Shown here: positions 28,637 to 36,231 of the stretch, piece after piece | How positions within the stretch are numbered: position 1 is the first letter of the stretch | How the letters are laid out: every line of letters starts with the position of its first letter | IMG/VR virus record: IMGVR_UViG_3300046787_000508 | Coordinates: 128,001 to 192,000 of that record | Reading direction: 5' to 3' (one strand) | DNA length: 64,000 bases | Source of the DNA: a virus | Taxonomy: Duplodnaviria > Caudoviricetes | The notes under the pieces: model-generated | The model's input: the letters and a program-made list of their open reading frames with translations, nothing else | The model's database searches: none | What the model was told of the DNA's origin: nothing | Made by a program: the position numbers and the translations under genes

Positions 28637-28706
28637 GGGCCTGATGTCAACGGCAGACCACCTGATTTGCAATCAGAGTGTTTGGGTTCGATTCCCACAG
28701 TGTCCA
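28637..28706 (+). tRNA. trnA: tRNA-Ala(UGC), atypical
   Basis: Loop tt-TGC-aa; G3:U70 pair; bulged acceptor stem. Confidence 0.7.
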
Positions 28707-28712
28707 CAAATT

Positions 28713-28784
28713 GGAATATAGCTCAGTTGGTTAGAGCGTCATCCTGATACGGTGAATGTCGATGGTTCGAGTCCATCTATTCCA
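28713..28784 (+). tRNA. trnI: tRNA-Ile(GAU)
   Basis: Cloverleaf; loop ct-GAT-ac. Confidence 0.9.
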
Positions 28785-28792
28785 ACAACAAT

Positions 28793-28865
28793 GGTGATGT
28801 AGCTCAGATGGTAGAGCGCTACCCTGAAGAGGTAGGCGTCGGCGGTTCGAGTCCGTCCATCACCA
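28793..28865 (+). tRNA. trnF: tRNA-Phe(GAA)
   Basis: Cloverleaf; ctacc-ctGAAga-ggtag. Confidence 0.92.
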
Positions 28866-28869
28866 CAAT

Positions 28870-28943
28870 GACCTCGTAGCTCAGTTGGTTAGAGCACCTC
28901 ACTTTTAATGAGGGAGTCAATGGTTCGAGTCCATTCGGGGTCA
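28870..28943 (+). tRNA. trnK: tRNA-Lys(UUU)
   Basis: cctca-ctTTTaa-tgagg. Confidence 0.92.
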
Positions 28944-28949
28944 CAATAT

Positions 28950-29021
28950 GCTGCGGTAGTGAAGAGGTTAACACGTATCACTTTCTATGATAAGGCCGGG
29001 GTTCGATTCCCCGTCGCAGTA
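28950..29021 (+). tRNA. tRNA with UUC anticodon (Glu), atypical U37
   Basis: tatca-ctTTCta-tgata; intact acceptor and T arms. Confidence 0.6.
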
Positions 29022-29025
29022 CAAA

Positions 29026-29098
29026 ATACAAATTAGGCTAAGGTAGCCAAATGGTCTCCAAAACCATAGGAGAAAGTTCGATTCTTTCAATTTGTGCA
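29026..29098 (+). tRNA. trnW: tRNA-Trp(CCA), weak first acceptor pair
   Basis: atggt-ctCCAaa-accat; T loop ttcgatt. Confidence 0.7.
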
Positions 29099-29152
29099 AA
29101 ATATAAATTATGAAAAAGAAATTTGATATGCATTAGGTTAAATTCCTAATAT

Positions 29153-29374
29153 ATGAAACCGTTCAAAAACAAAGTAAGTCAAACGACAACTCACAACAAA
29201 GAGTATAAAATAGTAACAAACGATAAATTCGACCCATATTGGGATGAAGGATATAATTTTTATCCGAGATATCGTAGAGGGTATAAGAACCCAAATAAAT
29301 GTATAATGAGTTTTCAAATTAGAATGTATCGAACTTGGAAACATAATAGAAAAACACAATGGAGAATAATGTAG
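29153..29374 (+). CDS. Small basic hypothetical protein
   Basis: 73 aa, ends RTWKHNRKTQWR. Confidence 0.6.
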   Translation: MKPFKNKVSQTTTHNKEYKIVTNDKFDPYWDEGYNFYPRYRRGYKNPNKCIMSFQIRMYRTWKHNRKTQWRIM

Positions 29375-29781
29375 AGGGATTTAAGTTAAAGGCCGAAGCT
29401 CAACTTATCCAAATCAGAGAGGAAAGAAAAAAGAGGGTAAAGGAGTATTGGGAAAATCTCCCCAAGATTGTTACTCCAAACGATGTCCCTGAATTACCAA
29501 GAGTAGATATTCAGGAATGGAAAGATTTCTACGTCCCAAAATTAATTGAGGCGGGAGCAATTGGTAAGGACGATTTGATTGAAGGTCAAATTTACATTGG
29601 TGAACATAGAAGAGCGAATGTTGCTAAATGGAACGGAAATGAATTCATTTACAATAGAGAGAAATTTGGAAACGTTTATGAAGATAAATGTAACCACTTT
29701 GAAGATGATGATGGGTTCGCTTTATTTGTTCCAATTAGATTTGGTACTGAGGAAGAATATAAGCAAAATTGTTTACAATAA
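29359..29781 (+). CDS. Hypothetical protein
   Basis: 140-aa ORF within the tRNA cluster. Confidence 0.7.
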   Translation: MENNVEGFKLKAEAQLIQIREERKKRVKEYWENLPKIVTPNDVPELPRVDIQEWKDFYVPKLIEAGAIGKDDLIEGQIYIGEHRRANVAKWNGNEFIYNREKFGNVYEDKCNHFEDDDGFALFVPIRFGTEEEYKQNCLQ

Positions 29782-29789
29782 ACAATAAA

Positions 29790-29863
29790 GGGTCTCTTGG
29801 TGTAACGGATAACACGGAACACTACGAATGTTTTGTTAAAGGTTCGAATCCTTTAGAGACCTC
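29790..29863 (+). tRNA. trnR: tRNA-Arg(ACG)
   Basis: gaaca-ctACGaa-tgttt. Confidence 0.88.
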
Positions 29864-29869
29864 AAATAA

Positions 29870-29941
29870 GTCAGGTTGACCGAGTTGGTAAGGTGAAGGT
29901 CTGCAAAACCTTTTACGTTGGTTCGAATCCAACACTTGACT
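29870..29941 (+). tRNA. trnC: tRNA-Cys(GCA)
   Basis: aaggt-ctGCAaa-acctt; U73. Confidence 0.9.
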
Positions 29942-29950
29942 CTAATATAT

Positions 29951-30024
29951 GGTGATTGTAGCTGAAATGGTAAAGCACCTGATTGTGGTTCAGGCGATTG
30001 TGGGTTCGATTCCCACCTTTCACA
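29951..30024 (+). tRNA. trnH: tRNA-His(GUG)
   Basis: cctga-ttGTGgt-tcagg; G-1 present. Confidence 0.85.
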
Positions 30025-30031
30025 CAAAAAT

Positions 30032-30115
30032 TGCGGGATGTCAGAAGATGGTATCTGGGGAGTCTCATAAGCTCTTGCGTAAGCCTCGTGGGTTCGAGTC
30101 CCACTCCCGCAACCA
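30032..30115 (+). tRNA. tRNA-CAU (probable elongator Met) with 12-nt variable arm
   Basis: ggagt-ctCATaa-gctct; encoded CCA end. Confidence 0.75.
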
Positions 30116-30150
30116 TTTACAATGATATTTATATTCGGTAAATTATTACT

Positions 30151-34285: not shown

Positions 34286-34363
34286 CGAGATGGTGATAAC
34301 CAATCAGCAGCCAAAATGTATACAGAAATGCTGGAGGTGACAAACGGGGAGAGACCCGTACAT

Positions 34364-34443
34364 ACCCGAGTGGTGGAATGGTATACACAGCGGTCTTAGA
34401 AACCGTGTCGAAAGGCGTGTCGGTTCGAGTCCGACCTTGGGTA
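34364..34443 (+). tRNA. trnL: tRNA-Leu(UAG)
   Basis: gcggt-ctTAGaa-accgt; variable arm. Confidence 0.92.
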
Positions 34444-34451
34444 CGAAAATT

Positions 34452-34523
34452 GGCCTTGTAGCTCAGTGGTAGAGCAGTTGACTGTTAATCAACTGGTCGT
34501 TGGTTCGAATCCAACCGGGGCCT
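34452..34523 (+). tRNA. trnN: tRNA-Asn(GUU)
   Basis: gttga-ctGTTaa-tcaac. Confidence 0.92.
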
Positions 34524-34594
34524 CAAAAAGTTTAACCATATAAGGTTGAATAAGATGACAGACGAAAGTTATCTCTTGAGGGTAAAATGAAAAG

Positions 34595-34655
34595 ATTGGT
34601 AGAGTGGTACTACGGGGTGACGGCCCAAACGCAGGTTCGATTCCTGTATCGAAGT
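34595..34655 (+). pseudogene. Degenerate tRNA-like remnant
   Basis: D-like tggtagagtggta and T arm gcagg-ttcgatt-cctgt, but no 7-nt anticodon loop. Confidence 0.4.
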
Positions 34656-34717
34656 AATTTGAGAGTAAAGGTAAAAGGTATTAATAGCGGTCTAAAAACT
34701 GGGTTAAACTTTGATAT

Positions 34718-34799
34718 GGGAGCATCGCATAGCGGCAATTGCAGAAGACTGTAAATCTTCCCTCTTTCGAGTTCGTAGGTTCGAGTCCTACTGCTCCCA
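34718..34799 (+). tRNA. trnY: tRNA-Tyr(GUA)
   Basis: gaaga-ctGTAaa-tcttc; variable arm. Confidence 0.92.
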
Positions 34800-34813
34800 C
34801 AAAAAAACAAATT

Positions 34814-35467
34814 ATGGCAACATTAGAAACACAGTACAAGGATTTTTTGGTTAAAAACCCAAGTTCAACGTTTACATTTGAAGAATGGAAAAACGACCAC
34901 GGGGTTAAGATTGCAAATGCAGTTGAACGTTCTTCCTCACTTAAGAAAATTATTGATGAGATTAGAACACCCGAATACAAGGAAAGGAGATTAAAAGAAA
35001 AAAAAGAAAGTAAAGAAAGATTAACCGCCGAGTATCAGTTTGGATATTATGTTGGTGAAGAAATTGTGACAAGGCATTTACCAACGATTACAACAGATAT
35101 GATAAAGTCTCGTAATCAAATTAAAGTTTCGGATGAAGACACTGAAGAAAACAAACGTATACATGACCTATGGTGGGAGAGTGGAAAATATGGTTCCAAT
35201 CCTGACGATGTGGTTAATAAAGAAACTTGGAAATTATATCGACAACATATGGTTATGTTGGAAAAGAAGTATCTCCCAAATCCTTTAAAATGTAATATTG
35301 ATTTATTAAATATTCGTGACGAGAAAGATTTTAAAGATGGGTTAATCCATTCGTTGTGGAATTGTGATATGTGTACTTACAGTTTAAAACCTGAAGACAT
35401 TAAGATATACGATGATGAAGATATGTGGTTTACCATCATTGAATTTATCCTAAGAGACGAAGAATAA
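34814..35467 (+). CDS. Hypothetical protein
   Basis: Start moved to MATLETQ (34814) because the ORF-track start lies inside tRNA-Tyr. Confidence 0.75.
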   Translation: MATLETQYKDFLVKNPSSTFTFEEWKNDHGVKIANAVERSSSLKKIIDEIRTPEYKERRLKEKKESKERLTAEYQFGYYVGEEIVTRHLPTITTDMIKSRNQIKVSDEDTEENKRIHDLWWESGKYGSNPDDVVNKETWKLYRQHMVMLEKKYLPNPLKCNIDLLNIRDEKDFKDGLIHSLWNCDMCTYSLKPEDIKIYDDEDMWFTIIEFILRDEE

Positions 35468-35473
35468 TAGTTT

Positions 35474-35547
35474 GGACTTGTAGCTCAGTTGGTTAGAGCA
35501 CCGCACTCATAATGCGTAGGTCCCTGGTTCGAGCCCAGGCTGGTCCA
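35474..35547 (+). tRNA. tRNA-CAU, probably Ile2 (lysidine)
   Basis: cgca-ctCATaa-tgcg; Ile-like body; leader 2 has two ATA codons. Confidence 0.8.
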
Positions 35548-35555
35548 CAAAATTT

Positions 35556-35630
35556 GGAAAGTTAGCTCAGTTGGTTCAGAGCACCTCGTTTACACCGAGG
35601 GGGTCGTAGGTTCGAATCCTACACTTTCTA
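35556..35630 (+). tRNA. trnV: tRNA-Val(UAC)
   Basis: cctcg-ttTACac-cgagg. Confidence 0.92.
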
Positions 35631-35823
35631 CAATGTATCAAATGTGCAGTGAAAGTTGATGTAGGCATACATCGGTGAGGTGGGTTCGAATCCCAAGTAA
35701 CAATACCCAATTTGGTGGGGGCCGAGTAACTGATAACACATTATAGCCGATTTTGGGTTGTGCACCTCGTCCGAGAAACCCTAATAGTTCCTAATAGACC
35801 GGTATGGAACTGATACATAATTT

Positions 35824-35896
35824 GCCTCCATAGCTCAGTTGGTAGAGCAGCTGATTTGTAATCAGCAGGTCGTTGGTTCGAGCCCGACTGGAGGCT
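35824..35896 (+). tRNA. trnT: tRNA-Thr(UGU)
   Basis: gctga-ttTGTaa-tcagc. Confidence 0.92.
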
Positions 35897-35901
35897 CATA
35901 A

Positions 35902-35973
35902 GCAGATGTCGTATAATGGTCATTACTTCAGACTTCCAATCTGAAGATGAGAGTTCGATTCTCTCCATCTGCT
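35902..35973 (+). tRNA. trnG: tRNA-Gly(UCC)
   Basis: tcaga-ctTCCaa-tctga; U73. Confidence 0.92.
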
Positions 35974-36069
35974 CTGTCGGTACCCAAAGGGTGAAGGACG
36001 TGGTATGGGACTTGTTCCCTCAAACTCAATACCGTAAGTTGAGCGGCCAATCTACGGGATTGGCTTTAC

Positions 36070-36141
36070 TGTTCCATGGTGTAACGGTTAACACTACCGG
36101 TTTTGAGCCGGTCATTTCAGGTTCGAATCCTGATGGGACAA
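36070..36141 (+). tRNA. trnQ: tRNA-Gln(UUG)
   Basis: accgg-ttTTGag-ccggt; U1:A72. Confidence 0.92.
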
Positions 36142-36145
36142 CAAA

Positions 36146-36231
36146 GGAAGGTTACCCAAGTTGGTGAAGGGGCCTGTTTGCTAAACAGGTAGGGTGTAAC
36201 AGCCGCGAGAGTTCGAGCCTCTCACTTTCCG
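36146..36231 (+). tRNA. trnS: tRNA-Ser(GCU)
   Basis: cctgt-ttGCTaa-acagg; variable arm; G73. Confidence 0.92.

Follow-up and report, generated by a model that had tools for sequence, protein, structure and literature searches.

We describe here the tRNA gene cluster of a jumbo phage, located at positions 28637-36231 of a window of 64,000 nucleotides (nt) that corresponds to bases 128001-192000 of the IMG/VR contig IMGVR_UViG_3300046787_000508 (202,894 bp); all positions follow the numbering of this window. The cluster is divided into two blocks of tRNA genes that have no specificity in common, and each block is preceded by a short open reading frame (ORF), here called its leader, which is rich in the codons read by the tRNAs that follow it, and by an intrinsic terminator. 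We consider it likely that this is a Bacteroidota jumbo-phage tRNA island in which each of the two blocks is controlled by its own ribosome-mediated transcription attenuator (Table 1). The proposal that the blocks are separately sensed is well supported by the statistics of the codon match, by its conservation, by the predicted structures and by an independent example in a cultured phage.

Codon content of the leader ORFs

Block 1 comprises the tRNAs for Ala, Ile (GAU), Phe, Lys, Glu (two copies), Trp, Arg (ACG), Cys, His, Asp and Ser (UGA), together with a CAU tRNA and an initiator CAU tRNA, while block 2 comprises those for Leu (UAA), Arg (UCU), Pro, Leu (UAG), Asn, Tyr, Val, Thr, Gly, Gln and Ser (GCU), together with another CAU tRNA. 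Every sense codon was given to the block whose tRNA reads it. Codons 12-23 of leader 1 then form an unbroken run of 12 block-1 codons (I C S K W A D E R S M S), and the ORF taken as a whole contains codons for each of the 12 block-1 specificities, the rare Trp, Cys, His, Met and CGT codons among them. Leader 2 starts with two block-1 codons, continues with 26 consecutive block-2 codons (codons 3-28), a run which holds all 12 block-2 specificities, and closes with seven block-1 codons. The match is at the level of the codon and not of the residue, such that the three split amino acids are discriminated (ATY versus ATA, TCN versus AGY, CGY versus AGR): the matched part of leader 1 uses ATY, TCN and CGY, and that of leader 2 uses ATA, AGT and AGA. 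All four TCN codons are found in leader 1.

When random 32-codon ORFs were simulated with the codon usage of the phage, the run and the coverage of leader 1 were reached together in 2 of 300,000, and a run of at least 26 codons, as in leader 2, was reached in none of 300,000 (0.545^26 is approximately 1e-7). The chance is less than 1e-5 for each leader, and the joint chance is far less than 1e-9. The two leaders take the top two ranks among the 968 ATG-started ORFs of 20-60 codons found in all six frames of the contig. Complete jumbo-phage tRNA sets are known, for instance the 56 tRNAs for 20 amino acids of XacN1 (PMC5852040), and the present cluster might be regarded as an ordinary codon-compensation island in which leader and block match by coincidence. 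Against these odds and ranks, however, and with the match kept in more than 40 relatives and replicated in Cellulophaga phage phi17:2 (see below), that explanation is effectively refuted.

Both leaders lie directly upstream of the genes they would regulate, and each has its own promoter of the Bacteroidota type. At the leader-1 promoter position the sequence TATCTTTG is kept in most of 39 distinct upstream regions, and a TAnnTTTG box is present at the leader-2 promoter site in 16 of 23. A 9-mer common to both promoters (ATACTTATT) has two copies in the genome, where about ten are expected by chance, and its rarity was not taken as evidence.

Conservation in metagenomic relatives

Relatives were found by means of a protein encoded inside block 1 and then by degenerate DNA patterns drawn from the leaders, and the complete tRNA regions of six long relative contigs were fetched. 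A blastn search against 50,697 phage records gave tRNA-level matches only, with no close cultured relative, and no Rfam family matched either leader, whether the gathering score or E ≤ 1 was applied. Seven long phage contigs have both leaders, both terminators and the same partition of the tRNAs. The long contigs in which this layout occurs measure 43-334 kb, and leader 1 followed by block 1 was seen in about 40 further metagenomic loci, with layout and partition kept. In compact relatives such as G003, all 12 ARAGORN-called block-1 tRNAs follow leader 1 without interruption in about 1.3 kb.

Leader 1 is represented by 39 distinct ORFs, in which a core of 18 codons (His to Ser) consists of block-1 codons in 95-100% of cases, two positions excepted, at which Thr alternates with Ile, Met or Ser. 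In the 24 distinct ORFs of leader 2 a core of 23 codons is of block-2 type throughout, most positions at 100%. Variation in the leaders is mostly synonymous or within the block, the flanks of both cores are mixed with regard to block, and ORF length and frame are conserved. The cores stop within about one codon (leader 1) or about three codons (leader 2) of segment 2, the part of the ORF tail predicted to pair with the terminator. The footprint of a stalled ribosome would begin to cover segment 2 at approximately, but not precisely, this point, and the fit is better for leader 2.

The gene for tRNA-Thr is in block 2 in most genomes and in block 1 in the relative G006 and in the contig that carries loci L015 and L017. 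Where it belongs to block 2, the leader-2 core has two Thr codons; that of G006 has none and that of L017 has one, and leader 2 of G006 has gained one Thr codon in its block-1-type tail. Thr is also the sole off-block codon tolerated in the leader-1 core. The leader codons of genomes with a relocated tRNA-Thr thus differ in the direction predicted, as judged from two events only.

Terminators and predicted antiterminators

Both terminators have G+C-rich stems which are conserved with compensatory changes, and each stands before the first gene of its block. Terminator 1 ends one base before tRNA-Ala, hence there is no room for a promoter between them. Terminator 2, with a stem of 10 bp, is found about 60 nt upstream of tRNA-Leu(UAA).

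Within each ORF tail, segment 2 is predicted to form an antiterminator with the 5′ arm of the terminator. The duplex of leader 1 has an energy of -12.1 kcal/mol, a value reached by 0.8% of shuffles, and in 44 aligned sequences 91% of the cells are paired, with 30 double-change cells. For leader 2 the energy is -11.0 kcal/mol, and 99.4% of the cells are paired in 26 aligned sequences, including a UA-to-AU switch which is mirrored in the terminator. The pairing of both leaders lies above all 500 shuffles and all slid controls, and compensatory changes are present. Sorted by the dinucleotides of segments 2 and 3, the sequences fall into the classes GA-UC (18) and AG-CU (11), with an ambiguous GG found with both and only three clear mismatches. 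A divergent subgroup possesses a wholly different stem (CCUCGGAA / UUCCGAGG), and its ORF tail is altered to match (GUUCCGAG). Segment 2 is in turn predicted to pair with segment 1; in leader 2 this 1:2 helix comprises 18 bp, six pairs of which are changed on both sides, and 2 of 500 shuffles score as high. In both leaders segment 2 ends about 15 nt upstream of the stop codon.

The leaders might sense the tRNA supply to another end, namely the processing or stability of the tRNA precursor or the recruitment of transfer-messenger RNA (tmRNA) and SmpB, the hairpins being processing or stability elements. The phage does encode tmRNA and SmpB 7 kb downstream, and a GTTCTTTGACAT block in the 5′ leader of block 2 (33922-33933) is nearly invariant in 26 relatives. 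The hairpins, however, are canonical intrinsic terminators with U tracts, and helices 2:3 and 3:4 exclude each other as in a classical attenuator, so that we regard such an output as improbable.

A second example in Cellulophaga phage phi17:2

Cellulophaga phage phi17:2 (NC_021798.1, 145 kb; host, Cellulophaga baltica) has 22 clustered tRNAs, and two codon-matched ORFs precede blocks of these. The first is an unannotated ORF at L158:2519-2587 (approximately 87518-87586; MKIQRLHLQELEQPIISGGTGV) with 11 consecutive matched codons (QRLHLQELEQP), whose readers are precisely the next seven tRNAs: Pro, Glu, Gln, His, Leu (UAG), Leu (UAA) and Arg (ACG). The second is the annotated gene gp077, read from a GTG at L158:3479-3562 (approximately 88478-88561), in which 17 consecutive matched codons (TKTGITVIDKTKGARAY) cover 10 of the 11 following tRNAs (Ala, Lys, Ile, Gly, Met, Asp, Thr, Val, Arg (UCU), CAU and Tyr). 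In a ranking of 4,822 short frames from the phi17:2 genome gp077 comes first, while the other ORF is second by run length and is the only frame that covers all seven tRNAs.

A strong terminator lies directly ahead of the first tRNA after both ORFs, and the leader tails, each of which holds a copy of the terminator 3′ arm, can pair with the 5′ arm at -11.8 and -12.0 kcal/mol. Both leaders have in common a promoter 12-mer (TATGTTTGCCAA), of which these are the sole two occurrences in the genome. The peptides are unrelated to those of the leaders in the window and the tRNA partition differs; therefore, the rule that a leader lists the codons of its block holds across phage families.

Proposed mechanism

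If any codon of a leader's checklist were decoded slowly for want of charged tRNA, the ribosome would stall upstream of segment 2, which would then pair with the terminator 5′ arm and allow RNA polymerase to continue into the tRNA genes. A ribosome that reaches the stop codon, about 15 nt beyond segment 2, would permit the terminator to form, and in an untranslated leader segments 1 and 2 would pair, with the same result. Decoding capacity would then be kept at a set level during infection by two independent negative-feedback loops, one for each half of it.

The blocks differ in how far they are expected to depend on readthrough. No promoter follows the terminator in block 1, and blocks 1a and 1b would be wholly dependent on it. 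In block 2 a promoter-like TTTG-N20-TAcaTTTG element lies after the terminator, and this block therefore need not depend on readthrough. The -7 box of this element has TTAG or TTTT in place of its TTTG end in approximately 11 of 26 relatives; the motif itself (TTTG-N20-TAnnTTTG) is the same as that ahead of the initiator tRNA (30985) and tmRNA (43044). Block 2 probably has basal transcription plus an attenuator-controlled input. The original prediction spoke of two separately sensed operons. The split holds, as does the leader, terminator and antiterminator matched to the codons of each block, whereas the insertions in block 1 and the extra promoters mean that these are not simply two operons.

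These same promoters bear on another explanation, in which the leaders are independent small genes, the tRNAs are expressed constitutively from their own promoters or by leaky readthrough, and the codon match serves some other use, for example as test substrates or decoys. Besides the element after terminator 2, the initiator tRNA and tmRNA are each immediately preceded by a strong promoter of this type, and the leader peptides are conserved at the amino acid level. Such independence is, however, difficult to reconcile with the lack of promoter space between terminator 1 and tRNA-Ala, with ORF tails that copy the terminator 3′ arm and vary together with the terminator, with the same ORF-terminator-tRNA layout around unrelated peptides in phi17:2, or with the discrimination of Ile, Ser and Arg by codon and not by residue. 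We judge it unlikely.

Several observations weigh against attenuation of the two blocks. Leader translation, termination and readthrough are all inferred from the sequence. A phylogeny-aware sign test of the leader-1 antiterminator found only four independent pairs, of which two to three changed in the right way and none in the wrong way (p = 0.25); the covariation is consistent with the pairing, but its independence of ancestry is not proven. In leader 1 the 1:2 helix is a conserved 6 bp, invariant and without covariation. A few off-block codons occur inside the cores (ACA in that of leader 1, and either TCA or TCT in those of some variants of leader 2), and in one relative locus, L041 (Ga0222712_10010125), ARAGORN calls only Trp, Arg, Met, Asp, Ser and Glu after leader 1, which still lists Ile, Phe, Lys, Cys and His codons. 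Block 1 in the window is broken up by two ORFs, an HNH-endonuclease-like gene and structured RNAs, and has an internal promoter; in block 2 the promoter-like element sits between terminator 2 and tRNA-Leu. The first tRNA of block 1, Ala(UGC), is marginal (30.0 bits versus a gathering score of 29). Finally, a third small ORF of phi17:2, gp078, upstream of Ser-Asn-Trp-Phe, is not codon-matched and lacks a clear terminator.

A wider reading, which we put forward tentatively and hold at slightly less than even, is that the leaders are real-time gauges of decoding capacity, sampling nearly every anticodon class, that would switch on the phage tRNAs blockwise once those of the host run low, lose their charge or are cleaved, as might happen through host shut-off or anticodon-nuclease defences. 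This would represent a general and so far undescribed mode of tRNA-gene control, used by Bacteroidota phages and others, the cultured Cellulophaga phages among them.

Comparison with known systems

The leader-peptide attenuators of enterobacteria (trpL, hisL, leuL, thrL, the multivalent ilvL/ivbL, and pheST) are built in a like manner: a short ORF is translated in the 5′ leader, its regulatory codons stand immediately before a segment able to pair with the terminator 5′ arm, and a stop codon comes soon after that segment. In an untranslated enterobacterial leader a 1:2 helix sequesters the segment, a helix that is predicted in the phage as well. The enterobacterial attenuators control biosynthetic or synthetase genes and carry a run of codons for one or two amino acids, whereas the phage leaders precede tRNA genes and carry a checklist of 10-12 codon classes, about one for each downstream tRNA. 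Unlike the enterobacterial leaders, the two phage leaders divide the whole code between them, and they belong to a phage of a host phylum with TAnnTTTG promoters and without Shine-Dalgarno sequences; the two kinds of leader share no sequence similarity. What differs is the tRNA genes as target and the multi-codon checklist, the anatomy being that of the classical leader-peptide attenuator.

T-box riboswitches also gate termination by tRNA status through mutually exclusive terminator and antiterminator helices. In contrast to the present system, in which the ribosome would be the sensor and many tRNAs would be read at once, the T-box binds one uncharged tRNA directly, without translation, and regulates synthetase, transporter and biosynthesis genes; no T-box match was found in the Rfam search.

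Control of tRNA genes is usually viewed in terms of promoter strength, growth-rate or stringent control, and processing. Full-text searches gave no description of leader-peptide control of tRNA genes in phages or cells, and no published regulation of jumbo-phage tRNA arrays. If the attenuators operate as proposed, decoding speed would feed back directly on tRNA synthesis, through a leader listing the codons of the downstream tRNAs. Whole phage tRNA sets are currently explained by codon compensation, replacement of degraded host tRNAs, or escape from tRNA-targeting defences, and the checklist circuit would offer a concrete, testable account of when phage tRNAs are needed. Since two cultured phages of Cellulophaga baltica, phi17:2 and phi4:1, share this design, it is amenable to the bench. 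Such leaders may also serve to assign tRNA identities without recourse to structure, as in deciding which CAU tRNA reads ATA. The role of phage tRNAs is debated (PMC10264068).

The arrays of jumbo and huge phages, such as XacN1 (PMC5852040), resemble this island in that a cluster serving 20 amino acids is found in a phage of more than 200 kb near translation genes. They differ from the set described here, which is non-redundant with one tRNA per box, has 27 genes, and falls into two blocks, both of them headed by a codon-matched leader of their own.

Phage and host

CheckV estimates the contig to be 60% complete, and the G+C content of the window is about 33%. The genetic code is standard: ORFs of at least 100 amino acids predicted with table 11 span 93% of the contig, reading through any single stop codon gains little, and TAA is the terminal codon of 126 of the 152 long ORFs. 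Promoters of the Bacteroidota type (TTTG, approximately 20 nt, TAnnTTTG) are present in intergenic regions, and the host is therefore most likely a member of the Bacteroidota. A sigma-70 scan gave 40 sites where 31 are expected, this model being uninformative for a host of this type.

tRNA inventory and decoding

ARAGORN detected 25 tRNAs within 28712-36232, all on the plus strand, to which Rfam added Ala(UGC) at 28637-28706 and Asp(GUC) at 31393-31465 (50 bits). The Ala tRNA has G3:U70 and A73, but its acceptor and T stems are weak. The 27 tRNA genes thus occupy 7.6 kb of the 203-kb contig, clustered on a large phage genome as in jumbo-phage tRNA arrays, and all tRNAs of the contig are confined to this stretch. 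The relatives measure 181-334 kb, and in one of 324 kb that is 97% complete a single region of this kind likewise holds all 26 tRNAs. The set amounts to 24 elongator specificities plus the initiator-type CAU and the second Glu, and serves all 20 amino acids. Each four-codon box has one U34 tRNA (UAG, UAC, UGA, UGG, UGU, UGC, UCC), to which Arg(ACG) is added, and CGG, with 22 of 61,109 codons in long ORFs (0.4 per 1000), is the only sense codon without a reader; CGG aside, this is a near-minimal set in which one U34 tRNA per box would in principle suffice for all sense codons. The ARAGORN and Rfam calls bear out the original prediction with regard to every tRNA that it listed, the near-minimal 20-amino-acid set split without overlap, and the decoding of the four-codon boxes with CGG alone unread. 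It had missed tRNA(CUA), several tRNA-like RNAs, and the tmRNA with SmpB.

The original prediction further took the set for a putative backup decoding system, perhaps with superwobble by unmodified U34. Minimal tRNA sets with one U34 tRNA per four-codon box ("superwobble") occur in Mollicutes and organelles. Their likeness to the phage set extends to 24 elongator specificities, an Ile2-type CAU tRNA and an I34-type Arg(ACG); the phage differs in that host tRNAs are also present during infection and in that an extra Gly(GCC) tRNA is found in many relatives. U34 tRNAs read U-ending codons least well. C-ending codons of the four-codon boxes are rare in the phage, and its commonest Gly and Val codons are U-ending (GGT, GTT); on its own, the phage set would thus require much U:U wobble. 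None of the nine four-codon-box codons in the leader-2 core (ACG, CCC, CTT, GGT, GGG, GTG, CCG) ends in A, that is, the Watson-Crick match to U34 is avoided, while phage genes favour A-ending codons for Thr and Pro; the chance of this avoidance is roughly 0.014. It hints that the leader-2 checklist uses slowly decoded wobble codons.

Table 1. Features of the tRNA island and its leaders (window numbering)
Feature	Position	Strand	Basis
Leader 1 promoter, Bacteroidota type: TTG, 20 nt, TAccTTTG	28418..28448	+	read from sequence
Leader 1 ORF, 32 codons, MRQFTHTMSFTICSKWADERSMSYSLGIDELS	28478..28576	+	codon matching, conservation
Leader-1 segment 1 (UGAGAC), can pair with segment 2	28479..28484	+	minimum-energy fold
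Leader-1 segment 2 (AGUCUCGG), ORF tail, predicted antiterminator with terminator 5′ arm	28550..28557	+	
Terminator 1, intrinsic, 12-bp stem and U tract	28599..28636	+	fold
Block 1a: tRNA-Ala(UGC), Ile(GAU), Phe, Lys, Glu, Trp	28637..29097	+	ARAGORN, Rfam
Block 1b: tRNA-Arg(ACG), Cys, His, atypical CAU	29791..30115	+	ARAGORN, Rfam
HNH-endonuclease-like ORF, between elongator-type and initiator CAU tRNAs	30151..30969	+	phrog_1271, E = 1.1e-5
Internal promoter TTACATTTGTA, then initiator-type tRNA(CAU) 31025-31097	30985..31097	+	sequence
Block 1c: tRNA-Asp 31393-31465, Ser(UGA) 31674-31760, Glu 32351-32423, tRNA-like RNAs between	31393..32423	+	
Amber-suppressor-type tRNA(CUA), own promoter, between the blocks, in neither leader's set	33576..33648	+	ARAGORN, Rfam 59.6 bits
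Leader 2 promoter: TTTG, 20 nt, TAaaTTTG	33672..33703	+	read from sequence
Leader 2 ORF, 35 codons, MKNINNILTSTRPLNNGNGYGVQPLSYLCSDIIEM	33721..33828	+	codon matching, conservation
Leader-2 segment 1, pairs with 33791-33809 (1:2 helix)	33726..33747	+	fold
Leader-2 segment 2 (UGUUCGG), copy of terminator 3′ arm, predicted antiterminator; pairs with CCGAACA 33854-33860	33805..33811	+	
Terminator 2, intrinsic, AACCCGAACA / UGUUCGGGUU and U tract	33851..33889	+	fold
Promoter-like TTTG, 20 nt, TAcaTTTG (33907-33914) and near-invariant GTTCaTTGACAT (33922-33933), before tRNA-Leu	33883..33933	+	
Block 2a: tRNA-Leu(UAA), Arg(UCU), Pro, Leu(UAG), Asn, Tyr	33948..34800	+	ARAGORN, Rfam
Block-2 tRNA(CAU), probably Ile2 (lysidine-dependent ATA reader)	35474..35548	+	E. 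coli matches, leader-2 ATA
Block 2b: tRNA-Val, Thr, Gly(UCC), Gln, Ser(GCU)	35556..36232	+	ARAGORN, Rfam

CAU tRNAs

Three tRNAs with a CAU anticodon are present. That at 31025-31097 has a C1xA72 mismatch and is 83% identical over its full length to E. coli tRNA-Met genes, at about four places per genome; it appears initiator-like. The best E. coli matches of the block-2 tRNA(CAU) are annotated as tRNA-Ile (78-81% identity, E = 4e-3). This gene is kept in block 2 of all relatives, and an ATA codon is invariant in the leader-2 core. ATA makes up 2% of phage codons, and the set requires a reader for it. These lines agree with the earlier assignment of this tRNA as Ile2, an identity that we consider probable. 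A phage TilS was sought in the contig and in the 97%-complete relative and was found in neither; Ile2 would therefore presumably be modified by the TilS of the host.

The third tRNA(CAU), at 30031-30115, has U1:A72, a variable arm of 12 nt and an encoded CCA, and a similarity search of E. coli gave no match. It had been predicted to be the elongator tRNA-Met, and presumably is, though it is atypical.

Neighbouring genes and RNAs

The HNH-endonuclease-like ORF in block 1, which compact relatives such as G003 lack, probably represents an inserted homing-endonuclease gene. The tRNA(CUA) between the blocks received no ARAGORN call in the six fetched relatives. Stop-codon recoding was considered as the reason for its presence and rejected, since TAG readthrough adds almost nothing and the code is standard. 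About 580 bp upstream of it, an ORF (32670-32999) starts with ATG AAA CAA CAT TAG and stays in frame for 104 codons further; it has a weak match to PTH2 (peptidyl-tRNA hydrolase) of 20.6 bits, below the cut-off of 23.

Several tRNA-like RNAs or fragments are located among the genuine tRNAs, at 31147-31259, 32034-32145, 34594-34650 (a partial match), approximately 35640-35700 and approximately 36380-36440. They have GGTTCGAnTCC T-loops, and some, including the first two, bear long inserts at the site of the anticodon arm. In its intron mode ARAGORN reports two of the tRNA-like RNAs as "Ser(tga) with intron", and Rfam scores are 27-35 bits. Further downstream, a 690-amino-acid protein (36556-38628; phrog_33734, no Pfam match) is followed by structured RNAs at 38653-39440, among them an insert-bearing tRNA at 39315-39440 (Rfam 45 bits).

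The promoter TTACATTTGTA recurs at 43044 and is followed by tmRNA (43073-43482; 81 bits) and SmpB (43519-43956; Pfam E = 8e-53), such that a full trans-translation pair adjoins the phage tRNA island. A sequence GTTC(A/T)TT(G/A)A follows the promoters ahead of RNA genes, at 33922-33933, 31008-31016, 38974-38982 and 43058-43066, preceding block 2, the initiator tRNA, a noncoding RNA array and tmRNA, respectively. The form GTTCWTTGA occurs 11 times in the window versus 2.3 expected, mostly inside genes.

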